Origin: a virus
Reading direction: 5' to 3' (one strand)
Virus record (IMG/VR): IMGVR_UViG_3300045988_120717
DNA: 52,121 bases
A program made the position numbers and the translations under genes. Of the stretch, positions 10,625 through 37,094 are shown one piece after another; positions within the stretch are counted from its first letter, which is position 1, and each line of letters opens with the position of its first letter. The notes beneath the pieces were generated by a model. The model saw only the letters and a program-made list of their open reading frames with translations. It was not told the DNA's origin and ran no database searches.

Positions 10625-13300
10625 GTGGCTACATTACAAAACAGAATTGAACTAGTCGATGGCGTGTCACCAGCGCTCAACAAAATTACGCAGAGCGTCA
10701 ATGCTACGCAAAAAGGCTTTAGCTCGATAGCCAACAGCAGGAAAGTTTTTGACCAGTTAGAACAATCTGTTTCCGGTGTAGAACGAATTGTTGATAATAT
10801 GCAGGGCAAAAGTATTAACATAAATACTAAAGCTATTCAAAATAGTATAGCGCCTATAATGAATATCGGAAAACGAATAGGAATGGCCTATGCTGATCCG
10901 TTCATACAATTGGGCACAATAGCAGGACGAGAACTTGATAAAGTAGCAACCAAAGGACAGTCAGTGGGGAGATCTGTTACCGCGTCAATGCAACCATTAC
11001 TGGCATTAGGAAAACGAATGGGTTTAGCTTATGCAGACCCTTTTATACAATTAGGTATAGTGGCAAAACGAGAGCTTGGTCCAGTGGGAAAATCAGTTAC
11101 TGCATCAATGCAACCCGTGTTAACACTAGGTAAACGGATAGGATTAGCCTATGCAGACCCGTTCATACAATTGGGTATAGCGGCGCAAAACTCTGCACCT
11201 AAAGTTGTCAGTATGTTTGAAAGTATAAAAGCTAAAGCTGGTGAGACTGCTGCAAGTATCAAACAGAAGTTCTCTGACTTATTTGGTCATGTGTCACCAG
11301 GTCCCGCAAATGACGCATTGGCGGGCTTAACTAATAGCACTAATAACACATCCGGAGCCTTCCGTAAACTTAAAGGATTAGCCGGCAGTACCTTTGGTCA
11401 AATGACTATGGCTAATCTTGCTGCCGGAGCTATTTCAAAAGTAGCAGCGGAAATATCCAGTCTTCCTAGCAAACTTATGTCAGCTTCAGACGCTTATTCA
11501 GGTATGCAAGCAAGGTTAAGACTCATTGTAGGTGCTGGCAGTGATGTTGAAGCCATGAATGAAGCTATTTTCCAATCAGCTATAAGAGCTAGAGGTTCTT
11601 ATACACAAATGGCGGATGCAGTTGGTAAAATTGCTATGACAGCTAAAGAGGCGTTTCCTGACCCGCAACAGGTAGTGCCTTTCATGGAAGGTATACAAAA
11701 GCTTTTCGCTATTGGTGGAACAGGTGTACAGCAACAAGCTGACGCTTTGCTACAGTTAACGCAGGCATTAGGCAGTGGCAAATTGCAAGGTGATGAGTTC
11801 AGGTCAATAGCCGAAGCAGCACCAATGATTGAACAAATGGTAGCTAAGTCTTTACATGTTACGACGGGTGCATTAAAACAAATGTCAAGTGATGGCCTTA
11901 TCACTGCCGAAATATTAAAAAATGCTATACTTGATAACATGGACACCATTAATGCCATGTTTGAAGGAATACCGCTTAAATGGAGTGATATTTGGCAGAT
12001 TGGCATGACAAAAATTGATTATGCAATGAGCGGGGTTTATAAAAAAGTTAATGATTTAGCAAATAGCCAAGTAGTCCGCATAATTAGTGATGCCGCGGTC
12101 AATGGTGTTGTCGCATTGGCCGGAGCCCTTGACTGGGTAATGAATAATATTCAGTATATAGCGGAATCACCTGCTACCGCACAATTTGTAGAAGGTATAA
12201 TCAGTGGTTTTAGTGAAGCAGCAAATACAGCGCAATGGTTTGTTGAGGTAATATCACAAAACATGGATTATATATTTCCGGTATTAATGGGGCTGGGTGT
12301 TGCGGTTATGGCTTTAGGGGTGGCATGGTTAGCGTCATCAGCTATGGCGGTAGGAGGTGCAATAGCTCATGCGGTTGCGTCCTTTATGGAAACTGCTGCT
12401 ATAATAGGTTTGATATTAGCACAGAATGGTTTAAACGCAGCCTTAGCTGCATGTCCGCTTACTTGGATAATTGGCTTAATAGTTTTGCTTATAGCTGTCT
12501 TTTACGTCGTTATTGCCGCCGTAAACAGATTTGCGGGCACTAGCATATCAGCAACAGGTATTATATTTACAGTGTTTGCTTGGCTATTCAACGCGATTTC
12601 GGCTTTAGTGGAATTTGTCATAAATAGATTTATTGATTTTGCTAATTTTCTAGGTAGTGTATTTCAGGACCCGTTAGCTGCTATATACAATCTATTCGCT
12701 GATATTTGGAACGGCGTTGTAGAATTGGTAGCAGAAGCAATAAATGGTATTATTGCGTTAATGAATAAAATCCCAGGTATAGAGATAAGCTCAGTATCTG
12801 CTAGTGGTTTAACTTTAAGCAGAAAAGCTATATCAGGATTTAATCCCATGTCACATATAAAAACAGGCAGAATCGATTCAGCGGGTGCTTATGACGCAGG
12901 TAAACGATTTGAGGAAGACCCGGTTGGAGCTATGAAAGATTTGTTCGGTGATGGTATACGGCATAAACTTGATGAGGTGCCAGCACAGAAAAATGATAAA
13001 TCGGGTGGTAGTTCAGATGGTTCAGGTGCCGGCGGAGACGGTGGCGCTGCACGTGATACCGCTGACAACACCGACAGAATGGCAAACGCTATGGATGACC
13101 TTATCGAAATTGCCAAGGAAGCTAGAGAATTAGCCAGTAAGGAAGCAGTGCAGCATTATACTACACAGGAAATAGCTGTTAGCGTTGGAGATATTAACCC
13201 GACTATTGAAAAACAGCAAGATATTGACGGTGTTATTGACCAGATAACAGAGTATATTTTAACTGGAATAAATACAGGTGCAGAAGCTGTCCATGTTTAA
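10625..13300 (+). CDS. Tail tape measure protein.
   Basis: 891 aa with internal transmembrane segments, a Gly-rich C-terminus, and three tandem repeats of about 40 aa. GTG start after GGAGGTGATACA. Confidence 0.8.
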   Translation: MATLQNRIELVDGVSPALNKITQSVNATQKGFSSIANSRKVFDQLEQSVSGVERIVDNMQGKSININTKAIQNSIAPIMNIGKRIGMAYADPFIQLGTIAGRELDKVATKGQSVGRSVTASMQPLLALGKRMGLAYADPFIQLGIVAKRELGPVGKSVTASMQPVLTLGKRIGLAYADPFIQLGIAAQNSAPKVVSMFESIKAKAGETAASIKQKFSDLFGHVSPGPANDALAGLTNSTNNTSGAFRKLKGLAGSTFGQMTMANLAAGAISKVAAEISSLPSKLMSASDAYSGMQARLRLIVGAGSDVEAMNEAIFQSAIRARGSYTQMADAVGKIAMTAKEAFPDPQQVVPFMEGIQKLFAIGGTGVQQQADALLQLTQALGSGKLQGDEFRSIAEAAPMIEQMVAKSLHVTTGALKQMSSDGLITAEILKNAILDNMDTINAMFEGIPLKWSDIWQIGMTKIDYAMSGVYKKVNDLANSQVVRIISDAAVNGVVALAGALDWVMNNIQYIAESPATAQFVEGIISGFSEAANTAQWFVEVISQNMDYIFPVLMGLGVAVMALGVAWLASSAMAVGGAIAHAVASFMETAAIIGLILAQNGLNAALAACPLTWIIGLIVLLIAVFYVVIAAVNRFAGTSISATGIIFTVFAWLFNAISALVEFVINRFIDFANFLGSVFQDPLAAIYNLFADIWNGVVELVAEAINGIIALMNKIPGIEISSVSASGLTLSRKAISGFNPMSHIKTGRIDSAGAYDAGKRFEEDPVGAMKDLFGDGIRHKLDEVPAQKNDKSGGSSDGSGAGGDGGAARDTADNTDRMANAMDDLIEIAKEARELASKEAVQHYTTQEIAVSVGDINPTIEKQQDIDGVIDQITEYILTGINTGAEAVHV
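10868..11200 (+). repeat. Tandem repeat of about 120 bp, present in 2.6 copies, inside the tape measure gene.
   Basis: The peptide unit KRIGxAYADPFIQLG...SVTASMQPxLxLG occurs three times. Confidence 0.8.
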
Positions 13301-23926: not shown

Positions 23927-24074
23927 TGAACTGATTACAGTGTATATCGAAACATTAGAAGGGTTTCTTCTTGCTGACCCTGGCGATTATATTATCACAG
24001 GCGTAAACGGTGAGCAGTATCCGTGCAAACCTGATATTTTCGATAAAACGTATGAAAGAGTGGAGGAATAAATT

Positions 24075-24359
24075 ATGAGCAAATGGACAGAAGTTAAAGA
24101 CAACATCGTAGAAGCATTGCATGTAGACGATGTGACAGAGCAAGTAAAGCAGAACGTGACAAATGCTATCTTGACGGAGGTTGTGCCGATGGTCGAAAAT
24201 GCCGTTGATAGCTTTGTAGCTACAACTAAAGAACAGGCTAAAACTGAAACGGGCTGGTGTAAAATTCGTGATGGTGTAGCGTTGCCGCTCATTATGCAGG
24301 GGCTTGTATATGCCGTCAAGACGATACTAACTAAGACGGTGACGGAGGTAAAAGCATGA
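24075..24359 (+). CDS. Hypothetical protein with a C-terminal hydrophobic segment.
   Basis: RBS is GGAGGAATAAATT. The competing 196-aa ORF on the minus strand looks spurious. Confidence 0.4.
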   Translation: MSKWTEVKDNIVEALHVDDVTEQVKQNVTNAILTEVVPMVENAVDSFVATTKEQAKTETGWCKIRDGVALPLIMQGLVYAVKTILTKTVTEVKA

Positions 24360-24526
24360 AACGTTGTAAATATTGTGGTGCTATATGCACTGAAAATGGC
24401 TGTCCCAACGGTACCTGCATAGCTTATTCTAAAAAAGAGGTGACACAGGTGACACCTAAAAAGCGTAAAACCAAAAAGGCTGATGTAGATAACATAGACA
24501 TGGTAGAAGCAGATATAAAGAGGTGA
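24356..24526 (+). CDS. Small CxxC zinc-ribbon protein of 56 aa.
   Basis: The sequence CKYCGAICTENGCPNGTC has a zinc-ribbon pattern. It contains tandem GGTGACAC repeats. Confidence 0.3.
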   Translation: MKRCKYCGAICTENGCPNGTCIAYSKKEVTQVTPKKRKTKKADVDNIDMVEADIKR

Positions 24527-24530
24527 CACT

Positions 24531-24788
24531 ATGAATAAAAATACTGATGATCTAGCTACGGTATTTGCTATGGCCACAGAGGTATACCGAAAAACACTTC
24601 ATCGCTATCATGTAATAGTGATAAGTCTGATTGTACTGTTATTGGTGTCACTTGTGTCACTTGTCATAGTACTGCAAGGTAATACGACTAAAGCAGCATG
24701 TACCGTGGGCACAGCAATCCCTATAGCCTTTATCACTACCAGCAGATTGCCGATAAGCAAGACGGAGAAAAGGGGCTGTTATGCATGA
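24531..24788 (+). CDS. Small membrane protein.
   Basis: 85 aa with one or two transmembrane segments. RBS is AGAGGTGACACT. Confidence 0.4.
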   Translation: MNKNTDDLATVFAMATEVYRKTLHRYHVIVISLIVLLLVSLVSLVIVLQGNTTKAACTVGTAIPIAFITTSRLPISKTEKRGCYA

Positions 24789-26012: not shown

Positions 26013-26666
26013 TCAAACTAGCACTCCGTCGTCTATCTGAGATATTAACCGTTCAATTTCAATAGGACACGTAATGTCATTATCCGTCATGAAGTCATAA
26101 ATGTCATACACGGCTTGAGCGTATGACTTATGCTTCAATCCCGGAAATAATGGCGTTTGAGTTTCGCCTTTGACTGCATAAAACTTATTGTTGCGTTCTA
26201 CAATTGCATATTTGATACCATCTACTTTAGCAATATCAGATATTTTTTTGTCGTTTTTATCATTAACTTGGCGATCATTGATTGCCGGCAGTGTTGTTTT
26301 GATAGCAGCTTTTTTGGGGAGTGGAGCCGAGTGTGTAAGCTCGGCTGTAAATTCAGCGATAGTTTCATCGACTTCACTAAAAGCATCGTCTTTGCGAAAA
26401 TCTGTTTCACGATTAATGCTGTAACGGTTTGTTTTGTTATTGATAAAGCCACAATTAACCCATATTTCCTTTTCTTTGAAGTTTTCGTCATTTGTCCAGA
26501 CATCAACAGTAAATCTGACTTTTAAGTAAGTCCTATCGTATTCGCCTTTTACCCAACGTTTTGAGTAAATATCAGGATGGACATTTATATGAACTTTTAC
26601 ATTGCCAGCTTTTTTTTGGCTTATCGCATAATCGGTTACAACTCTGTCAAATTCTGCTATTTTCAT
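26013..26666 (-). CDS. Hypothetical protein of 217 aa.
   Basis: Strong RBS (GGAAGGAGGAAAACAAA). First gene of the minus-strand operon. Confidence 0.5.
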   Translation of the reverse strand: MKIAEFDRVVTDYAISQKKAGNVKVHINVHPDIYSKRWVKGEYDRTYLKVRFTVDVWTNDENFKEKEIWVNCGFINNKTNRYSINRETDFRKDDAFSEVDETIAEFTAELTHSAPLPKKAAIKTTLPAINDRQVNDKNDKKISDIAKVDGIKYAIVERNNKFYAVKGETQTPLFPGLKHKSYAQAVYDIYDFMTDNDITCPIEIERLISQIDDGVLV

Positions 26667-27569: not shown

Positions 27570-28214
27570 ATGGCACTTGATGACAACACCGGCATGGCCG
27601 GTAACAGTGTGTCAGTATGGGGATTAATTATTTTCTTCATTCTGTTGTTTGCTATCTTTAGAGGCTGGGGCAACTTTGGCGGTTTTAATAATCAGCCGTT
27701 CCCGCCTAATAACGGTGTAGGCAACGTCGCTGACATCATGGCGCTGGTTGGTGCTGAACATGGTTGCGGGCAGGTTACGAATTGTGAACTCGAGAAGCGT
27801 TCCTTGCTCAACACGGATGCGGTGACTAGCGCAATCCAATCGTCTACTAATCAGCTTGCTACGCAGTCCCGCTTGCAGTACGACACAGCGATGGGTGAAA
27901 AGATGTTTGACTTGAAAATCAACAATCTTGCACAGCAGAACCGCTACGAAACGGCCGCAGCTCTACAGCAGCAGAACTACGAAGCTAAACTCGCTGCTAA
28001 GGACGCAACGATTGAGCGCATGACGCTGGCACAGAATATGACTGCACAGTTTACGACTCTCCAGCATGAAATTGAAGGGATTAAAGCTAATATGCTTACT
28101 AAACCGAACATCACAGGTGTTGGCGCAGTATGCCCCAATGCAGGTATTGTTAATGGTCTTGGCATTGGCAGTTCAATCGGTGGCTATTGCTGTGGTGCTG
28201 GCAGTATAGCTTAA
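27570..28214 (+). CDS. Membrane-anchored protein rich in Gly and Cys.
   Basis: RBS is AAAGGAGG. N-terminal transmembrane segment. The C-terminus is GGYCCGAGS. Confidence 0.45.
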   Translation: MALDDNTGMAGNSVSVWGLIIFFILLFAIFRGWGNFGGFNNQPFPPNNGVGNVADIMALVGAEHGCGQVTNCELEKRSLLNTDAVTSAIQSSTNQLATQSRLQYDTAMGEKMFDLKINNLAQQNRYETAAALQQQNYEAKLAAKDATIERMTLAQNMTAQFTTLQHEIEGIKANMLTKPNITGVGAVCPNAGIVNGLGIGSSIGGYCCGAGSIA

Positions 28215-28739: not shown

Positions 28740-28985
28740 ATGGGTAACTTTTTTGCTGGTATGGTGGCAGGTTTTTTAGCCTTTTCACCAGAAGGTAGAA
28801 ATGTATATGGTAAGGTAATTAAAAATTTGCAGGATAAAATATATGGAGGTGACAGTATTGAACACGACAAATTGGACGATAGAAAAACTTTATCAGCTGA
28901 TAGCGAACCACCAGTTAACCGGAGTGATGTTCCACACGGAAGCGAGCAGATACCTGAAGTTCCTGGGGCTAAAAAACCTTGCTGA
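28740..28985 (+). CDS. Small hypothetical protein.
   Basis: It overlaps the next ORF, and its 3' extent is uncertain. Confidence 0.25.
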   Translation: MGNFFAGMVAGFLAFSPEGRNVYGKVIKNLQDKIYGGDSIEHDKLDDRKTLSADSEPPVNRSDVPHGSEQIPEVPGAKKPC

Positions 28986-29433
28986 GCTACAGCATAACCA
29001 GGCACTAGACGAATGGCAGGACCTGGAATGTACCGAAGACACGTATTTACAATGGCATGAGCTAATGCTTGTACCTGCCGCAGAAAACTACGATAAGCTG
29101 ACACCAGCGGAAGCCTTATCTACTAAAGTACAAACGGTGGGTCGCGAGTTTAAGCGTAAAACCCTGTCACACTTTATGGAGCGCTGGGCTGATTGGGAAA
29201 ACGAGACAGAGGTATTATATAGTACGGCGGTTAAGTGGTGTATTGAAAGCGGTTGTGCGGACATGCTGCACTTCAAAAAATTACTTTGTGACGTATGTAA
29301 AGAAAAAACTCGTCTTACCTTTTTGCGGGATAAGATGAGCTTGTCTGACTGGGATTTAGTAGCTAGTGAAAATCTTGTCTACGATTTGTCTACAGATGAA
29401 AGTAAAACCGTAGGAAATCACAAAACAGTTTAG
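28843..29433 (+). CDS. Hypothetical protein.
   Basis: 196 aa. RBS is GGAGGTGACAG. Confidence 0.4.
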   Translation: MEVTVLNTTNWTIEKLYQLIANHQLTGVMFHTEASRYLKFLGLKNLAELQHNQALDEWQDLECTEDTYLQWHELMLVPAAENYDKLTPAEALSTKVQTVGREFKRKTLSHFMERWADWENETEVLYSTAVKWCIESGCADMLHFKKLLCDVCKEKTRLTFLRDKMSLSDWDLVASENLVYDLSTDESKTVGNHKTV

Positions 29434-29529: not shown

Positions 29530-29620
29530 TATGACCGTTAACCTTTATACAATCAAGGCTGACGGTCATATTTTTTACAGTTTGTCTACAATTTGTCTAC
29601 AAAGCAGGCTTGTCTACATC
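29530..29620. other. Candidate attP: an 8-bp inverted repeat plus three arm-type direct repeats.
   Basis: ATGACCGT, then 23 bp, then ACGGTCAT. TTGTCTACA occurs three times at the 3' end of the integrase gene. Confidence 0.4.
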
Positions 29621-30802
29621 TTTTTCGTGTAAATGTTCAGTGATGTCAGCAACCTGCTTTTGCATTAAGTCAGTATTATGTGTATAGAGATTTTCGGTTA
29701 TAGCTGTTGACTTGTGACCTAATCTTGCTGCTACACTTTTTGGTGATGCCATGTTTTCAATTAAGCGCGTGGCGTGGGTGTGTCTAAAGGAATGACTGTT
29801 AAATCCGTTTTTGCGCAGAGCTTGGGAAAAAGAGTCACGGTTAATAAGTTTCCCGTCTGGACGAGTACAGACTAATCTAATGCGCTGGCAAGAAACAGGT
29901 GGAGTTATGCCTTTTGAGTATTGTACTGCAAAATCGTTTTCGTTGGAGAAAACATATACATAAGACAAACCCGCTTTCAGTTCGTACTGCTTTTGTAAGT
30001 TTGACCACTTATGTAGAATACCCACGGTTAATTTATCAAGCATAATTGAACGCTTGCTGGTATCAGTTTTTAAAGACTGGAACTTAAAACCAGTACCCGG
30101 AATATATATCAGCTGTTTCACTATGTCAATTCTACTAGTATCTAGGTGTACATTATCCCATGACAGTCCTAGCAGCTCGCCTAACCTTAAACCGGTATAG
30201 TAGGCTAGAATTATGGGAATGTGGTAGCTGCTGCCAAAAGGAAACAAAGTTAATAGCTTATTAAGGTCACTGCTGGTTATGATATAGCGTTTCACTACCT
30301 GCTTTTTGGCGCGTTTAGGTATTTTTATAGCAGTACTCGCATTATAACTTATCAGTTCCAATGGGTATACAGCATAAGTTAGAGCATTACTTAGGACCGT
30401 TTTTATATTCTGAATTGTGCGATACGCTTTATTTTCGTCGTCACACAGTTTACGGAAAAACAGGTCAATGTCACGTGGCTTTAACTCTTGTAAAAGTATA
30501 TTACCTAAGTATCGGTTGACACTTTCGATGGCTGCATTATAAGTTTTAACGGAGTTTGGCTTTAAGTCCTTTTGATGAAGGTTAAACCATTTTTCAAGAT
30601 AATCCCGTAAAAGTATCTTGTCACTAGTCAACCCGATATTACCGTTTTTCCAATCGGTATAAGCAGCTGCACCAGCAGTAAACGCTTCCTCTTTTGAGCT
30701 GAAACCGCCTTTTTCTTTCATACGGCGTTTACCGTCAGGACCGGGCTCAATGTCAAAACTATAACTCCATGTTTTACCGCGTTTTCTAGTTCGTACGGCC
30801 AT
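29597..30802 (-). CDS. int: Tyrosine integrase.
   Basis: 401 aa. It has the C-terminal catalytic R...HxxR...Y motifs (HSFRHTHATRL...LGHKSTAITENLYTH). Confidence 0.85.
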   Translation of the reverse strand: MAVRTRKRGKTWSYSFDIEPGPDGKRRMKEKGGFSSKEEAFTAGAAAYTDWKNGNIGLTSDKILLRDYLEKWFNLHQKDLKPNSVKTYNAAIESVNRYLGNILLQELKPRDIDLFFRKLCDDENKAYRTIQNIKTVLSNALTYAVYPLELISYNASTAIKIPKRAKKQVVKRYIITSSDLNKLLTLFPFGSSYHIPIILAYYTGLRLGELLGLSWDNVHLDTSRIDIVKQLIYIPGTGFKFQSLKTDTSKRSIMLDKLTVGILHKWSNLQKQYELKAGLSYVYVFSNENDFAVQYSKGITPPVSCQRIRLVCTRPDGKLINRDSFSQALRKNGFNSHSFRHTHATRLIENMASPKSVAARLGHKSTAITENLYTHNTDLMQKQVADITEHLHEKDVDKPAL

Positions 30803-30894
30803 TTAAGCGTCACTCCTATCAATTTTTTATTCGTATATAGCAAATTTGAGTATTTGAAAAGGTGTATCTTTTGTGATACACCTTTAGATGATTA

Positions 30895-31185
30895 TTAATT
30901 ATTCAAAATGTCCCACTTATATCCGCAGTCAAGGCATTTTCCTACCAACTTATTCATTCCGAAGAATCCAGCCAATAAGCCGATACCACCTGTAAATAAA
31001 CCCAAAACAATGCCTCTAACCAAGGCAAAGCCTCTCTTGTTTATAGTAATATTGTAAGAATGGCATTGGGGGCAATTAGGCATTGACTTGTCTACGCTAT
31101 TCATTATCGAGACGGTAGCTTCTCCACAGTTAAGGCAGAACTTAGCATCATTAGGCAGTTCTTTTCCACAACTTTTACAGAACAT
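30895..31185 (-). CDS. Zinc-ribbon membrane protein.
   Basis: Three CxxC pairs followed by a transmembrane segment. Its ATG overlaps the upstream gene's stop codon (TGATG). The RBS is GGAGGG. Confidence 0.5.
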   Translation of the reverse strand: MFCKSCGKELPNDAKFCLNCGEATVSIMNSVDKSMPNCPQCHSYNITINKRGFALVRGIVLGLFTGGIGLLAGFFGMNKLVGKCLDCGYKWDILNN

Positions 31186-32582
31186 CAAGCTCCCTCCTTT
31201 TTGGTATGGGCGTTCATCTGTTGCCAAAGTTTTTCGCTTTCTCGGAACTGTTCAGCATCCGCGGTTTCGATGAAATCTACGCTGCCATCGAAATTTTTAT
31301 TTATAGTATCTTTTATCTCATCAAGCGAAACTCTAAAAAATTCCCGCCTTGTATTTACCATATTTACTTTTCTGTTCTCAAAGGCTTTGTGGATAGCTGC
31401 TTCCAACTTTGGAGCGTTGTCGCTGAAAATCATAGCGTGAATATCGAAGCCGAAAGGTACCGAGGCGTCTCCAAGTTCGCGTACTCTATCCATCGGGTCC
31501 AGTCTGCGCGTCATGCCTATCTTATAAACACCTTCGCCAAAAGAACCGATATTTGATATAACGTAGACATAGCCAGCTTTTTGATTGCTTTCGCGGTAGT
31601 CTATATCAGCAATATGCTTTTCTACCTGCTCCGCCTGTTCTTCAAGCTCACTTAGTTTTTGCACAAAAACTTCCTTATCATCAGAAGTCTTTGCGCTGGC
31701 TATTTTTTCCTTCATTGCAGAGATAGCATTTTTGTAATGTGTCTGTTCTTTTTTGATCTTCCTGCGAGCTTCTTCAATTTCTTTTTTCAGCCGGGCTTCT
31801 TCACGCAGCTGCTCCCGTAGCATACGCTGTTCTTCTTTTTCTTTTTGCTTCATCTGCTTATACTCAAAAGCAAGATGAAGTTCTTTTATTTTTAAATCAA
31901 AATATTCATAATTGATGCTAATGCTCATGCATCGTCCTAGTTTGTCTATGGCTTCTTTTGCAGATTCAATACGTTTTTTGTATGCGTCGAAATTATTATA
32001 CTTTACTTTAGCAGTCAAATGTTCACATTCGCCGTTAAAAGCACGAAGAAGTAGTTTTGAAATGTCGCGCACCATCTTTTTACCTTCAGCAGTACTTCCA
32101 TTTACTACCCAAGTTTGTGTTTTTGAAATGGCAGATCCATTTTTTATTAAAGCTTTTTGATTGCTGCGAATTTTATCAAGTTCTTCTTTGTATCGGTCTG
32201 AATTTACAAAATCATACATAGGTTCATAAAGCGATACATTTTGCAAGAGGACTTTTTCATCAAGTTCAATAAGAGCGCCCTTTTTTATACTCAATTCGTC
32301 CTCTAATGATTTGAGACAGTTTTTATTTACATCGAGTGTTTCTTTTAGAGACTTTACTTGATGTTCAAGATCTTGTTTACGTTCAGCAATGCTTGCGGTA
32401 GCTTCGTCAATTATATTTTTAGCATTTATTCCTGCTTCTGATATGATGGTATCGGCTTTTTTTTTAGCATTGTATATAATATGATTTGATTCTTCTTTCA
32501 GTTGAGCAGTTTCTTTTCGCATAGCTTGCAATTCTTTTTCTTCTGGGGTAGTAAGCCCTAGTAAGTTTCGTAACCATGACAT
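31185..32582 (-). CDS. DUF4041-like coiled-coil protein with a C-terminal domain that resembles T5orf172 (GIY-YIG-related).
   Basis: 465 aa. There is a long coiled coil, and the C-terminus has the motif GYVYVISN...YKIGMTRR...R. Confidence 0.55.
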   Translation of the reverse strand: MSWLRNLLGLTTPEEKELQAMRKETAQLKEESNHIIYNAKKKADTIISEAGINAKNIIDEATASIAERKQDLEHQVKSLKETLDVNKNCLKSLEDELSIKKGALIELDEKVLLQNVSLYEPMYDFVNSDRYKEELDKIRSNQKALIKNGSAISKTQTWVVNGSTAEGKKMVRDISKLLLRAFNGECEHLTAKVKYNNFDAYKKRIESAKEAIDKLGRCMSISINYEYFDLKIKELHLAFEYKQMKQKEKEEQRMLREQLREEARLKKEIEEARRKIKKEQTHYKNAISAMKEKIASAKTSDDKEVFVQKLSELEEQAEQVEKHIADIDYRESNQKAGYVYVISNIGSFGEGVYKIGMTRRLDPMDRVRELGDASVPFGFDIHAMIFSDNAPKLEAAIHKAFENRKVNMVNTRREFFRVSLDEIKDTINKNFDGSVDFIETADAEQFRESEKLWQQMNAHTKKEGA

Positions 32583-32612
32583 TATTCAATTAACACCTAC
32601 TTGTATTTTATT

Positions 32613-33017
32613 TTAATTTGGTCTCCATTGCAGCATTATTGCTTTTACCATCTTCTTACCACAATATTCAATGTGACTTTTGAGATAAAATCGTTTACCA
32701 ATTAAAATCAGTACAAAAGTCGCTGCGAGTACAATCGCCGATAATGTTGGCACATTTAAAAAATCGGTCGTTTTGACTAAGCTAGTTGCTGACTTAATGT
32801 GGCTGTCCCACGTATACTCTGTGTCCGATTCTATGTCCGCCGATTCAGCGATGCTTACGATGGATGCAGGGAGATAGTCAGACAAGTCAGGGATATTCCG
32901 CAGCGTGAAGCCGGTCATTCCGACAAAGATGAGCGTGAAGATGAAGAAAGTCTTTAATGCTGTTTTATTTATATTTATAATTCGTTTTTTCAATTGGTAT
33001 TGCTCCTTAGTCTGCAA
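32613..33017 (-). CDS. Hypothetical membrane protein.
   Basis: TTG start with two transmembrane segments. The start is uncertain. Confidence 0.35.
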   Translation of the reverse strand: MQTKEQYQLKKRIININKTALKTFFIFTLIFVGMTGFTLRNIPDLSDYLPASIVSIAESADIESDTEYTWDSHIKSATSLVKTTDFLNVPTLSAIVLAATFVLILIGKRFYLKSHIEYCGKKMVKAIMLQWRPN

Positions 33018-33120
33018 TGACTATACGGACAATTCTACCATCGATTATTATGTAGTAGACATTCTCCATGTGGCAACACCCCTTTATAATGTATTTTCAA
33101 CTGCTAGTTAGCAGATTGAA

Positions 33121-33579
33121 TCACACGTTATAACCGCAGGCGCGGAGGGTGAAAAGAACTGAATTTTTTATATGGAGCTTTGCTTCCGGCGACAAAGGCT
33201 TTTTGTTTTCTTTGTCGCCAAAAAACTTGCCGTCGATTATCTTAAGAACATCAGGACGGTCAGCAAATATTTCATCCATCAGACCGCTTTCAGATTTAGC
33301 ATCGGCGGGTACGACTGATACTTCTGAAATATTCGGTGGTTTGTCAAGTTTTTCATTTTCTTCAGAAAGTAACGCTTGTACAGGAACATGAAAGAAGCTG
33401 GCTATTTTTTTTATCTTGTCTATTTTGGGAATATTAGTACCTTTTACCCAAAAATTAACCGAAGCCGTAGAAACACCAACATAATCCGCTAAGTCTTTTT
33501 GAGTTTTATCCTTTGTTTCTAATAAATTACGCAAGTTTTTAGAAAATATGGTATCTTTAGGATTTTTTAGTTGTGTCAT
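33121..33579 (-). CDS. CI-like repressor with an XRE helix-turn-helix and a C-terminal domain.
   Basis: N-terminal HTH_XRE. It is divergent from a cro-like gene. RBS is AAAGGAGG. Confidence 0.65.
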   Translation of the reverse strand: MTQLKNPKDTIFSKNLRNLLETKDKTQKDLADYVGVSTASVNFWVKGTNIPKIDKIKKIASFFHVPVQALLSEENEKLDKPPNISEVSVVPADAKSESGLMDEIFADRPDVLKIIDGKFFGDKENKKPLSPEAKLHIKNSVLFTLRACGYNV

Positions 33580-33863
33580 AGTACCGCCTCCTTTCTATTT
33601 TGATTATATAGGATGTCTTTATAATTAGCAATAATAAAACTAAAAAAATATTAATTTTATTATTGACATTAAGTTAAAATTAAGTTATTATTTAACCATG
33701 CTTAAAAACTTAATACATCCCGTGAATATTGTGGCGGGAGACTAAAAGAGCTGGCTGTGGTCAGCGAAACAGGCAAAGTTGCTGAAAGGCGATAGAGACT
33801 TGCATTAATCCCATATAAGGGGGCGAGCCTAGTCAATGACTAATAATTTTGGAGGTAAAACTA
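33580..33863. promoter_or_regulatory. Immunity switch region with back-to-back promoters, an operator inverted repeat and a long cro leader.
   Basis: Minus strand: TTGCTA, 17 bp, TATAAT. Plus strand: TTGACA, 17 bp, TATTAT. The inverted repeat is AATAATAAAA, then 15 bp, then TTTTATTATT. The 5' leader of about 165 nt carries small hairpins. Confidence 0.5.
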
Positions 33864-34096: not shown

Positions 34097-34837
34097 ATGG
34101 AAAACTTGGTGAAAATTGAAAATCAGCAGATTGTAACGGATAGTCGTCAAATTGCTGAAAACTTTGGAAAACAGCACAAGCATGTAATCGAAGCCATCGA
34201 AAATATCAAAGCCGAAAATTCGGCTCTGACAAGTTTCTTTTACGAGGGGACATATAAAGCCGGCACGGGCAAGTCTTACAAAATGTACTTAATGAACCGT
34301 GACGGTTTCACATTGCTGGCAATGGGCTTCACTGGCAAACAGGCTTTAGAGTGGAAACTCAAATATATCAAGGCTTTCAACGAAATGGAAGCTGAGTTAA
34401 AAGCCAAGCAGGAGCCGAAGTCGCAAATTGACATTCTTGTTGAGAGTGCCAAGGCATTGCAACGGCAGGAGCGAGAGTTAGCACGGCTTAAGCTGACGCA
34501 GGAAGAACAGGCTGAGAGCTTGCGAATTGTCAATTCCCGCATGGACACGCTGAACGGTGTCTGTACAGAAGGTACAAAGCGGCAGAAATTAGTTGCGATG
34601 GTTCAAAAGTATGCCATCAGTAACGGCTTGGCATTTAATCGAGGATGGCATGACTTCCGTCAAGCTTACAACACAGCTTTCCACACCAATCTGAGAAATT
34701 CACAGAACTATTACTGTGAAAAACAGGGGATCAAGAAAATCAGCACGCCTGACTTCCTAGAGCGTAAGGGCTATCTTGATGACGCAATGCGCATTATGGA
34801 TAAGCTGCTGGCACAGAGAGAAACATTACTGAACTAA
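34097..34837 (+). CDS. Rha-family phage regulatory protein.
   Basis: The N-terminal segment IVTDSRQIAENFGKQHKHVIEAI is Rha-like. Confidence 0.55.
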   Translation: MENLVKIENQQIVTDSRQIAENFGKQHKHVIEAIENIKAENSALTSFFYEGTYKAGTGKSYKMYLMNRDGFTLLAMGFTGKQALEWKLKYIKAFNEMEAELKAKQEPKSQIDILVESAKALQRQERELARLKLTQEEQAESLRIVNSRMDTLNGVCTEGTKRQKLVAMVQKYAISNGLAFNRGWHDFRQAYNTAFHTNLRNSQNYYCEKQGIKKISTPDFLERKGYLDDAMRIMDKLLAQRETLLN

Positions 34838-34873: not shown

Positions 34874-35092
34874 TTAGCGGTTGATTTCAGGGTTGTCGGT
34901 GCGACCGACTAAGTAATCAATGGAGACGTTGAAGTTATTGGAAATGTCAATAAGTACAGTGGCAGACGGTACGACTTTTCCGTACTCATAACGTTGGTAC
35001 AGTGATTCAGCTACATCAATGCTGGACGAGATTTGTTTTTGGGTCAGTTTGAACTCTTTGCGAAAACGACGCAAGCCATCAGATAGAGTCAT
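34874..35092 (-). CDS. XRE helix-turn-helix regulator, copy A of the minus-strand paralogue.
   Basis: ATG after GGAGGTTGA. Carries the motif LTQKQ...YQRYEYG...IDYLVGRTDNPEIN. Confidence 0.55.
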   Translation of the reverse strand: MTLSDGLRRFRKEFKLTQKQISSSIDVAESLYQRYEYGKVVPSATVLIDISNNFNVSIDYLVGRTDNPEINR

Positions 35093-35195
35093 AGTATCAA
35101 CCTCCATAAAAAAGATTGACACGACATAAATGTGGTGTTATATTAATAACAACACAACAAATATGTAGTGTTAAATACAAAAGGAGAGGAGCGAC

Positions 35196-35399: not shown

Positions 35400-35454
35400 C
35401 AGGCTGTACTTTCATTGTAGCAAAGGTACAGTAATGATAAAAGGAGATTTTTTT

Positions 35455-36294
35455 ATGACTAAACTTGAATGTTTTAATTCGGCTGAATTTGGAACAGTCA
35501 GAACGGTAACTATCGGCAATGAACCTTGGTTCGTTGGTAAAGACATAGCAGATATTTTAGGGTATCGCAATCCTAACGAAGCCATTCAAGACCATGTAGA
35601 TGATGAAGATAAATTCATCCGCTCCGCAAGGGGTAGCGAAATGCTAAAACTCTTTAGTTCGCTAAAGGAAATGCAAGAAAAGCTGGGTAGGCAAGATAAT
35701 TGGTTTATTTCTGAATCCGGTGTTTATTCGTTGGTGTTCAGCTCAAAGCTCCCGACCGCAAAAAAGTTCAAACGCTGGGTAACGAGTGAAGTGCTCCCAG
35801 CTATCCGCAAGCATGGTGCTTACATGACGGAGGACACAATCAAAAAAGCCCTGCAAGAGCCTGACTTTATTATCAAGCTGGCAACAGAGCTGAAAGAAGA
35901 AAAGGAAGCTAGAAAAACGGCAGAGCTTGAAGTTGCGCAGAAGTCGCAAATCATAAACGAGCTGAAACCGAAAGCTGACTACACCGACCGCATATTGCAG
36001 AGTAGTTCCTTAGTAACTATCACTCAGATAGCTAAGGACTACGGCATGAGTGGTAAAAAAATGAATAGCCTGCTTCACGAGCTAAAGGTTATTTACAAAA
36101 TGGGTAGTCAGTGGCTTTTGTACAGCAAGTACCAAGCTAAAGGCTATACCCATAGCGAAACCGTCAACATCGAGCACTCGGATGGACGTTCTGATGTAGT
36201 CATGAATACTAAGTGGACGCAGAAGGGCAGGTTATTCCTGTATGAGTTGCTTAAGAAAAACGGCACATTGCCACTTATTGAGCAGGCTGCATAG
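35455..36294 (+). CDS. Antirepressor with a Bro-N N-terminal domain.
   Basis: The sequence FGTVRTVTIGNEPWFVGKDIADILGY is Bro-N-like. RBS is AAGGAG. Confidence 0.65.
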   Translation: MTKLECFNSAEFGTVRTVTIGNEPWFVGKDIADILGYRNPNEAIQDHVDDEDKFIRSARGSEMLKLFSSLKEMQEKLGRQDNWFISESGVYSLVFSSKLPTAKKFKRWVTSEVLPAIRKHGAYMTEDTIKKALQEPDFIIKLATELKEEKEARKTAELEVAQKSQIINELKPKADYTDRILQSSSLVTITQIAKDYGMSGKKMNSLLHELKVIYKMGSQWLLYSKYQAKGYTHSETVNIEHSDGRSDVVMNTKWTQKGRLFLYELLKKNGTLPLIEQAA

Positions 36295-36308: not shown

Positions 36309-36533
36309 TCAAGCAGCTTTGTAATTGATGATGGCGATTTCTGTTAGTGATTTTTCCATAGCAGCTACGATCTTTTCCAGCTGCTTGGCGACCTCACGAC
36401 TGTAAGACACTTCGCCACACTGCGTGCAGACTTCCGAGGGAACATTTCGCACGATGACGATGCAGTGCCCGAGGTCAACGGTAAAGGTAGTGAGTTTGTT
36501 TTCTAACGTGCCTTTGCACAGGAAGCAGGTCAT
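36309..36533 (-). CDS. YgiT-type (MqsA-like) zinc-finger antitoxin.
   Basis: MTCFLCKG...VRNVPSEVCTQCGE matches the family consensus. Confidence 0.6.
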   Translation of the reverse strand: MTCFLCKGTLENKLTTFTVDLGHCIVIVRNVPSEVCTQCGEVSYSREVAKQLEKIVAAMEKSLTEIAIINYKAA

Positions 36534-36539
36534 TTTGAA

Positions 36540-36866
36540 TCATTCCTTTCTTGTAGTGCGAGTAGTAAAGTCAGCCGACCAGATGGAAGCATCCGGGCGA
36601 TAAGCGGTTATTAGAAAAAGTTCATCCGGCGTGATGCCGCAAACGACATGGAGTGGTTTGTCATTAATAGTATAGCCTAAAACCAGGCAGCTAGGATAGG
36701 GATAATCGTCGGGATAATCTTCAATGATTTTACCATTGGCAAGAGCTGTTTCAACATCTTCAATGGTTATTCGCCGTTGGATGATGCGCTGCATGAAGTG
36801 TTGTGTGTAACGAAATGCTTTTTTGGCACAATGGTTACGAATCTGAAAAAGCTGTTGACTTTGCAT
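36540..36866 (-). CDS. DUF4258-family toxin.
   Basis: RITIEDVE..NGKIIEDYPDDYPYPSCLVLG...HVVC...ITAYRPD matches the DUF4258 consensus. Confidence 0.6.
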   Translation of the reverse strand: MQSQQLFQIRNHCAKKAFRYTQHFMQRIIQRRITIEDVETALANGKIIEDYPDDYPYPSCLVLGYTINDKPLHVVCGITPDELFLITAYRPDASIWSADFTTRTTRKE

Positions 36867-36875
36867 AATATTCCT

Positions 36876-37094
36876 TTAGTGGTTTATCGCTGGTGTATTG
36901 GTTCTGCCAGTTAGGTAGTCTAATGAGACGTCAAAGAAGTCAGCAAGAGCCAATAGCTTTTGATATGCTGGTTCTCGTTCGCCATATTCATACCGTTGAT
37001 AGCCTAATGCAGACATACCGATAGCTGAGTAAACCTGCTTCTGTGTAAGATTTCGATTAGTTCTAAGTTCTTTTAATCGCGTAGAAAAATTCAT
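36876..37094 (-). CDS. XRE helix-turn-helix regulator, copy B of the minus-strand paralogue.
   Basis: Paralogue of 34874..35092. It lies 9 nt upstream of the toxin gene. Confidence 0.55.
   Translation of the reverse strand: MNFSTRLKELRTNRNLTQKQVYSAIGMSALGYQRYEYGEREPAYQKLLALADFFDVSLDYLTGRTNTPAINH

Follow-up and report, generated by a model that had tools for sequence, protein, structure and literature searches.

A prophage-borne SNIPE (PD-lambda-1) homologue without a transmembrane anchor, encoded between two small proteins with hydrophobic segments

The virus record IMGVR_UViG_3300045988_120717 is a stretch of 52,121 nucleotides (nt), referred to here as the window, and coordinates given below are those of this stretch unless another contig is named. 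The locus of interest, from 30,895 to 33,017, encodes a 465-amino-acid (aa) protein whose sequence marks it as a full-length member of PD-lambda-1, an anti-phage family now called SNIPE. Two small proteins are encoded on either side of it, which we call orfA and the 96-aa zinc-ribbon/glycine-zipper (ZR-GZ) protein. These genes belong to a run of five minus-strand genes (33579 -> 29597) that encode a CI-like repressor, orfA, SNIPE, the 96-aa protein and an integrase, in that order. The remainder of the window is that of a long-tailed phage, with the tape measure gene at 10625..13300. The features of the locus are as follows.

33631..33603, minus strand: sigma-70-like site just upstream of the repressor gene (consensus scan).
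33121..33579, minus strand: CI-like XRE/HTH repressor, first gene of the lysogeny unit (Pfam HTH_3, E = 1e-11; transcriptional repressors phrog_8, phrog_4 and phrog_3).
33047..33076, minus strand: promoter-like site TTGCCA-18-CATAAT between the repressor gene and orfA (10 of 12 consensus matches; a lead only).
32613..32993, minus strand: orfA, 126 aa, two hydrophobic segments (TTG start, AAGGAG 8 nt before).
31185..32582, minus strand: SNIPE/PD-lambda-1 homologue, 465 aa, without a transmembrane anchor (PADLOC, PHROGs, AlphaFold2).
31890..32057, minus strand: DUF4041 core (PF13250), residues 176-231 (Pfam, E = 8.2e-20).
31296..31574, minus strand: T5orf172/MUG113 (GIY-YIG-type) nuclease domain, residues 337-429 (Pfam).
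30895..31185, minus strand: 96-aa ZR-GZ protein (Pfam DZR and Zn_Ribbon_1; phrog_2546).
30913..31074, minus strand: 54-residue C-terminal module of the 96-aa protein, residues 38-91 (pattern match in relatives).
30858..30885, minus strand: terminator-like hairpin directly 3' of the 96-aa gene (11-bp stem, -14.6 kcal/mol, z = -8.7 versus shuffles).
29597..30802, minus strand: tyrosine integrase (Pfam Phage_integrase, 3e-20; Phage_int_SAM_3; Arm-DNA-bind_4).

The TGA stop codon of the SNIPE gene and the ATG start codon of the 96-aa gene have one base in common (TGATG; sequence GCTTGATGTTC). An earlier reading of this DNA from its letters alone (the sequence-only reading) had pointed to this overlap, which was verified in the sequence, and had placed the genes between an integrase and CI, as the Pfam matches of the two flanking genes confirm. 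Because orfA, SNIPE and the 96-aa gene all have homologues elsewhere, none of them is a chance open reading frame (ORF). A megablast search of the 4.6-kb region against cultured phages gave zero matches. The number of sigma-70-like sites found in the region by the consensus scan does not exceed the shuffled expectation, and the hairpin that follows the 96-aa gene has a weak U-tract and hence was not flagged by that scan.

The 465-aa protein matches the PADLOC profile PDLC03976 (PD-Lambda-1) with E = 4.6e-156, wherein residues 15-461 align with profile positions 37-481 of 491. It also matches PDLC03977 (E = 2.2e-146) and phrog_1847 (E = 1.4e-151). The DUF4041 core scores 70.9 bits against a cutoff of 27 and covers profile positions 1-56 of 56, and the precomputed Pfam annotations of the tool name this family, PF13250, 'SNIPE'. 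The nuclease domain is matched by both T5orf172 (E = 1.1e-19) and MUG113 (E = 3.7e-18), in agreement with the C-terminal, GIY-YIG-related T5orf172 domain that the sequence-only reading had described. Family membership, the integrity of the domains and the gene organisation can thus be read directly from the locus.

As an E. coli reference we used the 500-aa protein of the cultured phage PhiR26_1, which is annotated as PD-lambda-1, because all nine of the residues named in the SNIPE paper are present in it with identical numbering. The window protein is 40-43% identical to this reference, and together with the end-to-end PD-Lambda-1 match this leaves the earlier statement that no recognisable characterised defence system is encoded here without support. 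In the same alignment, E394 of the window protein is the counterpart of the catalytic E414 of E. coli SNIPE. The window protein has an invariant glutamate at its own position 414, which was considered as the equivalent of the published residue and rejected, since the alignment to the E. coli protein leads to E394. Among 62 aligned homologues, the invariant positions in window numbering are G337, V339, Y340, K354, I355, G356, R359, R360, E394, N407, N410 and E414, while Y338 and Y353 are kept in at least 90% of them.

The AlphaFold2 model of the 465-aa protein is elongated, in line with the published layout of SNIPE, has a mean predicted local distance difference test score (pLDDT) of 89.6 and shows no transmembrane (TM) helix. 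It is composed of a long helix (residues 13-103), a globular region (about 109-225), a helical hairpin (225-332) and an alpha/beta domain (337-430) in which strands 337-343, 352-358 and 380-387 are accompanied by helices. The long helices at 13-103 and within 225-332 bear out the coiled coil that had been noticed from sequence. A Foldseek search of the whole model against the PDB gave no match at E <= 0.001, and coiled coils dominate the list. GIY-YIG chains of Slx1 (7cq2_A, 4xm5 and 7cq4_A) occupy ranks 6, 7 and 13 with non-significant scores (E about 1, probability 0.38-0.69).

PD-lambda-1 was discovered by functional selection in E. coli, wherein a single gene is active (Vassallo et al. 2022, PMC9519451), and one PD-lambda-1 gene suffices for protection in S. 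thermophilus (PMC12322248). The system was renamed SNIPE in a mechanistic study (Saxton et al. 2026, Nature 2026, PMC13190303; bioRxiv 10.1101/2025.11.03.685801). The N-terminal TM helix of E. coli SNIPE is an essential inner-membrane anchor, DUF4041 binds DNA and probably also the tape measure protein, and the GIY-YIG domain cuts phage DNA during injection. The partnership with the tape measure protein at injection is based on proximity labelling for lambda, and direct binding is inferred for other siphoviruses. The defence is direct and non-abortive. E. coli SNIPE without its TM helix is toxic and cleaves host DNA (PMC13190303).

The window protein has the same order of parts as E. coli SNIPE, namely a coiled coil, DUF4041, a helical linker and a GIY-YIG/T5orf172 nuclease. 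The likeness extends to the full-length profile match, 40% identity, the retention of the catalytic Glu and of the GIY/YIG/Arg motifs, and the location in a prophage. Cultured temperate phages with SNIPE homologues include CDMH1, ES18, EJ-1 and PLE3. The earlier suggestion that the lysogeny region of this prophage holds anti-phage cargo is therefore supported, as a known system occupies this location. However, the two proteins are not alike in every respect. The host of the window phage is probably a gut or rumen member of the Bacillota, judged from relatives. E. coli SNIPE is a single gene, whereas in the window SNIPE is part of a conserved block of three genes, the other two of which encode small proteins with hydrophobic segments. 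Furthermore, the window protein has no N-terminal TM helix, and instead begins with an amphipathic peptide of about 10 residues and a DivIVA/YscL-like coil.

There is also a difference at two positions of published interest. K202 (about 31977..31979) occupies the position of E. coli E223, and H236 (about 31875..31877) that of W257, such that the window protein has Lys and His where the E. coli protein has Glu and Trp. In E. coli SNIPE, E223K alone enhances defence against Bas14 (and Bas14-18), and the substitution named at the other position is W257R (PMC13190303).

No N-terminal TM helix is apparent in the first 150 residues of the window protein, where the maximum 19-residue hydropathy is only 0.33. 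There is no possible upstream in-frame start, because each listed ORF is opened by the earliest start codon that follows a stop. The AlphaFold2 model places only a short helix (residues 2-7) at the N-terminus, followed by a soluble coiled coil. The N-terminal peptide MSWLRNLLGL, about 10 residues in length, is modestly amphipathic (hydrophobic moment 0.41), and residues 16-77 give weak matches to DivIVA (E = 0.0019) and HrpE/YscL (0.007). According to the SNIPE paper, about 66% of homologues have an N-terminal TM helix and 34% do not, and the N-termini of the latter are DivIVA-like, type III secretion system (T3SS)-like, PH or DUF4428 (PMC13190303). The lack of a TM helix is compatible with SNIPE membership because this description of the family admits such members. 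On sequence, the window copy belongs to this subclass, whose members it resembles in having no predicted TM helix and a weakly DivIVA- and HrpE/YscL-like N-terminal coil. It differs from them in being accompanied by the ZR-GZ protein and the 2-TM protein orfA, which are encoded by separate co-transcribed genes. No mention of partner genes was found in term searches of both versions of the SNIPE paper (PMC13190303).

Close homologues swap N-terminal modules on the same core, and these modules include a TM helix, a DUF4428-like zinc ribbon, MGLFDxxF-type peptides, TM2 and HIRAN. Among individual close homologues, P0086 has an MJ0042-type zinc ribbon (PF13717), P0098 has TM2 (PF05154) and P0119 has HIRAN (PF08797). 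These three module types are absent from the passages of the SNIPE paper that were consulted (PMC13190303).

The 96-aa protein begins with a zinc ribbon (residues 2-44) whose CxxC-x(10)-CxxC knuckle pair matches Pfam profiles above threshold, with 31.8 bits for DZR (cutoff 27.3; 1.5e-7) and 30.0 bits for Zn_Ribbon_1 (cutoff 25; 4e-7). The protein also matches phrog_2546 (E = 1e-24). Three CxxC pairs had been reported from the sequence, but there are four (C3/C6, C17/C20, C38/C41 and C84/C87). The TM segment reported with them corresponds to a hydrophobic stretch at about residues 58-78, between the last two CxxC pairs (Kyte-Doolittle 19-residue mean 1.97). The stretch is real, but instead of spanning the membrane as a helix it may re-enter as a glycine-zipper loop. 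In the AlphaFold2 model (pLDDT 66.7), strands 46-51, 79-84 and 90-92 form one sheet, and the hydrophobic stretch is of low confidence. This strand pairing and the conservation of the cysteines in the family would place C38/C41 and C84/C87 in one zinc ribbon. Together they suggest a single cytoplasmic zinc ribbon with a membrane-dipping (re-entrant) glycine-zipper insert, not a membrane-spanning helix.

There is no Pfam model that covers the C-terminal module of this protein. An exhaustive profile search gave 377 representative clusters of the ZR-GZ family at E < 1e-10. The module pattern is present in 89 of 148 retrieved relatives, and 85 of these 89 matches are exactly 54 residues in length. 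The order of elements in the family, with basic residues on either flank, is CPxC, K-K/R-G-F/Y, a glycine-rich hydrophobic segment (LTGGIGLLAG) and CLxCGHxW. The corresponding elements of the window protein are CPxC, KRGF, the glycine-zipper hydrophobic stretch and CLDCGYKW. Positions C38, C41, G52, G69, G73, C84, C87 and G88 are invariant across 40-60 relatives. The zinc ribbon and the 54-residue module are common to the window protein and to the phrog_2546/phrog_3845 and 'zinc ribbon domain-containing protein' entries (such as phiC2p19 and Lactobacillus phage LF1 gp32). However, the window protein is minimal at 96 aa, whereas most relatives are lengthened by the insertion of a middle domain (L7/L12-C-like, DUF4236 or of unknown type) or by an additional TM helix at the C-terminus, which in some of them is bona fide. 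We found no literature on this module family. Neither the 96-aa protein nor orfA has a significant match in PADLOC (only CorA-like, E = 0.058) or a match to a toxin or antitoxin in NCBIfam. With no match to a toxin-antitoxin (TA) or abortive-infection (Abi) family and with the nuclease gene coming first, the genes do not have the appearance of a TA or Abi pair.

The ORF listed for orfA is 32613..33017 (134 aa), but a TTG codon at 32993, located 8 nt past an AAGGAG sequence, is the likelier start and yields the 126-aa protein. The description of orfA as a further membrane protein agrees with its two hydrophobic segments, and only its start needs to be revised. Both termini are basic. There are no matches to orfA in Pfam, PHROGs, NCBIfam or PADLOC, and no homologues were found with tblastn in the cultured-phage collection. 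Its homologues are restricted to the viral contigs L001 (94%), L002/L254 (84%) and L037 (66%), where each is located directly upstream of a SNIPE gene. The possibility that orfA is the split-off N-terminal TM region of SNIPE was considered and rejected, since in four variants it is conserved as an ORF of its own, and since no resemblance to the fused TM regions of SNIPE is evident by eye.

The association of these genes was examined from the side of SNIPE in clusters defined at 70% identity, of which 44 were evaluable for a module partner. The near-identical phages L001, L002 and L254 also carry the 96-aa gene beside SNIPE. In L037, SNIPE is 85%, orfA 66% and the 96-aa protein 51% identical to the window proteins, and the one-base overlap is kept. 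The neighbours of the block in this contig are an integrase only 24% identical to that of the window and an aldolase-like gene at the place where the window has CI. Because both neighbours differ, the three genes have moved together between backbones, and the cassette in L037 lies at the margin of an integrative element other than that of the window. At L037 1..3458, orfA starts the block 35 nt past the end of the fructose-bisphosphate-aldolase-like gene, and the block overlaps the start of the integrase gene. A metagenome scan for intermediate relatives of the window SNIPE clade gave one more copy (99%), all others being at most 64% identical, so that L037 is the single contig that carries the case for clade-level co-conservation.

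Beyond this clade, a downstream 96-aa-type gene is found in 0 of 28 related viral-contig loci (L003-L032) with a complete SNIPE ORF, and SNIPE is followed in many of the L003-L032 loci by an integrase or serine recombinase gene. The next-closest SNIPEs with the same N-terminal peptide (P0007, P0008, P0019 and P0022) have no small zinc-ribbon gene downstream, where other or convergent genes are located. SNIPE lies downstream of repressor-type HTH genes in the loci of P0004 and P0007. The module gene is absent in 41 of the 44 evaluable clusters. Nevertheless, those module genes that do occur in the flanks of SNIPE loci all directly adjoin SNIPE. In L197/L211, SNIPE is 546 aa in length (PADLOC 6e-80) and has an N-terminal zinc ribbon, and a co-directional gene for a 318-aa module protein comes 22 nt after it. 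The pair is flanked by genes for an ImmA-like protease and a serine recombinase. In another group (L214-L225 and L248), the gene directly upstream of a TM-bearing SNIPE encodes a module protein of 287 aa, again in the same direction, and the siblings L213 and L219, whose SNIPE falls in the same 70%-identity cluster as that of the L214 group, have no module gene.

Fusions between SNIPE and the module, sought in both directions, number 0 among 120 SNIPE homologues and 0 among 148 module relatives. Adjacency of SNIPE and the module is therefore recurrent but facultative. Co-occurrence of the pair elsewhere, which the sequence-only reading had named as a check, is seen in L001, L002, L254 and L037 but not in the closest relatives with the same N-terminus. 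Its proposal of a two-component module draws a little support from this narrow clade plus two other lineages, and is weakened by the 41 SNIPE clusters that do without the partner. Directly downstream of the TM-bearing SNIPE at L216 5400..5865 (also in L217, L218 and L225) there are a 69-aa ORF and an 83-aa RelE/ParE-like ORF, which would constitute a second cargo module in the same slot.

The association was also examined from the side of the module family. Our unbiased sample consists of 48 module clusters, with module loci found with two sub-alignments, and 15 of them have a tape-measure-sized ORF at a distance of at most 300 nt. The large neighbours proved to be tape measure proteins in 13 of the 15 cases tested, and these represent at least six PHROG families. 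The contigs with this arrangement are L049, L100, L101, L113, L117, L123, L141, L153, L154, L163, L177, L178 and L184, and the two genes are sometimes on opposite strands. Among cultured C. difficile phages, phiC2, phiMMP01 and phiMMP03 have a module relative immediately beside the tape measure gene, and in phiC2 (L330, 12771..15697) the annotation has it as p19, which directly precedes the tape measure gene p20. About 30% of module lineages are found beside a tape-measure gene, far more than the few per cent that chance placement of a gene would give.

By comparison, 8 of the 48 module clusters are within 4 kb of an integrase gene and just one of these eight is next to SNIPE, such that 47 of the 48 have no SNIPE link. 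Module genes also occur alone, without SNIPE, in the lysogeny regions of LF1, SMO_1P and CP51. In unbiased samples, the adjacency rates are 1/8 for lysogeny-slot module clusters and about 1/47 for SNIPE clusters. An association of SNIPE with the module and a shared cargo hotspot cannot be told apart without a base rate for SNIPE-free lysogeny slots.

HK97 gp15, an inner-membrane protein, and Ltp of S. thermophilus phage TP-J34, a lipoprotein, cause superinfection exclusion at the injection stage through the tape measure protein. By description, the 96-aa protein is similar in that it is likely prophage-expressed and has a hydrophobic, probably membrane-associated segment, and its family adjoins tape-measure genes or resides in the lysogeny region. 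It is distinguished from them, again by description only, by the cytoplasmic-type zinc ribbon and glycine-zipper insert of its family. We know of no exclusion phenotype for the ZR-GZ family.

We judge the chances to be somewhat better than even that SNIPE acts here as it does in E. coli, with neighbours that are dispensable or independent. SNIPE would be expressed from the lysogeny transcription unit that also carries the repressor. By homology, the targets of DUF4041 would be DNA and, when a long-tailed phage arrives, its tape measure protein, and the GIY-YIG-type domain would then cleave the entering DNA at the cytoplasmic membrane. The lysogen would be protected directly, without cell death. 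We infer that the nuclease is active and localises to the membrane, as well as what its neighbours do, and the TM-less copy may associate with the membrane through the amphipathic peptide MSWLRNLLGL and the DivIVA/YscL-like coiled coil. The orfA and ZR-GZ proteins, both hydrophobic and probably membrane-associated, would be co-transcribed with SNIPE and form a cassette with it that is inherited as one. In all likelihood neither is an obligatory SNIPE subunit, and the 96-aa protein is more likely a separate cargo from a phage family whose own link seems to be with the tape-measure/injection step. Several observations weigh against this reading. The peptide is merely about 10 residues in length and of modest amphipathicity (moment 0.41), and because deletion of the TM helix is toxic in E. 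coli, a natural TM-less copy needs some other restraint. In addition, the block of orfA, SNIPE and the 96-aa gene retains its order and start/stop overlap on two backbones, and adjacency of SNIPE and the module recurs in two other lineages (L197/L211; L214-L225 and L248). The conserved block and the recurrent adjacency both hint at a possible role for the neighbours.

If there is such a role, one possibility is a multi-component SNIPE in which one or both small membrane proteins act in trans as a tether and/or as an adapter that recognises the tape measure protein, replacing the fused N-terminal adapter. We consider this possible but not probable. The overlap kept in L037 despite only 51% identity of the 96-aa protein, the retention of the whole block on a different backbone and the restriction of orfA to the window SNIPE clade are consistent with such an arrangement, as is the toxicity of TM-deleted E. 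coli SNIPE (PMC13190303). The two further independent adjacencies are co-directional and tightly spaced, and every module gene in the flanks of SNIPE loci directly adjoins SNIPE. The adapter idea is attractive because SNIPE works through the tape measure protein at injection (PMC13190303) and the module is enriched beside tape-measure genes (15/48 clusters). However, this enrichment fits equally well with the 96-aa protein as an independent injection-stage factor. On the other side, 41 of 44 clusters have no partner, and among these are the closest relatives that share the TM-less N-terminus. The L214-group SNIPE, which does have a module neighbour, carries its own TM helix, and its siblings L213 and L219 manage without the module gene. 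Moreover, fusions are lacking among the homologues searched, the unbiased adjacency rates are low, and the solitary module genes of LF1, SMO_1P and CP51 imply that adjacency could reflect a shared insertion hotspot. A more specific version, which we hold a shade more tentatively still, is that ZR-GZ is a membrane module that engages the tape-measure/injection machinery and has been recruited in at least three lineages as a trans subunit that positions or licenses SNIPE at the site of DNA entry, here together with the 2-TM protein orfA. Such engagement would explain why the module is frequently encoded beside the tape-measure gene.

It is quite unlikely that the locus is a toxin-antidote pair, wherein the TM-less nuclease endangers the host chromosome and the 96-aa protein (or orfA) keeps it inactive until infection. 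E. coli SNIPE without its TM helix does cut host DNA (PMC13190303), and translational coupling would link the expression of the two proteins. However, the antidote gene would be downstream of the toxin gene, which reverses the usual order in type II TA operons, there are close TM-less relatives that lack the 96-aa gene, the ZR-GZ family is mostly unlinked to nucleases, and SNIPE defence is direct and non-abortive (PMC13190303). Least probable, and in our view very improbable, is that the T5orf172 protein serves the phage itself, for example as a regulator, in recombination or as a nuclease of the homing type. Such roles have been suggested for other T5orf172/Bro-N proteins. Although T5orf172 domains are present in many lytic-phage proteins and some records call homologues a 'putative regulatory protein' (CDMH1 gp42), it is the whole PD-lambda-1 architecture that is matched here and not just the nuclease domain. 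The same architecture protects two hosts (PMC9519451, PMC12322248), and the gene is located in the lysogeny unit, not in the replication or lytic modules.

Other parts of the window also contain genes of possible interest. There are four ORFs of about 200 aa without a Pfam family in the interval between the tail genes and the integrase (23987..24577 and 26013..26666 on the minus strand, 27570..28214 and 28843..29433 on the plus strand), and these may be further cargo. The two on the minus strand coincide with a change of GC and AT skew to negative values (about 25-27 kb). What looks like a TA pair occupies 36309..36866, where two minus-strand genes lie within the plus-strand early region. The first encodes a DUF4258 protein of 108 aa (E = 1e-29) and the second a zinc-finger protein of 74 aa that is MqsA/YgiT-like (E = 9e-4). 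Two paralogous small XRE-type HTH genes (34874..35122 and 36876..37094, both minus strand) have a common C-terminal motif, LDYL.GRT..P.IN, and are interleaved with the plus-strand genes for Rha (34097..34837) and a Bro-N/KilAC antirepressor (35434..36294).

The mechanism of SNIPE was already published in 2026, and this locus is one more prophage copy of the system that is useful for annotation. It also sharpens the question of how the one-third of SNIPEs that are TM-less spare the host chromosome and find incoming DNA. orfA and the 96-aa protein, which are co-inherited with a TM-less SNIPE, are concrete candidates for such functions. Finally, the unstudied ZR-GZ family, found beside tape-measure genes in about 30% of the sampled lineages, provides a new lead towards the injection step or towards exclusion that acts at it.

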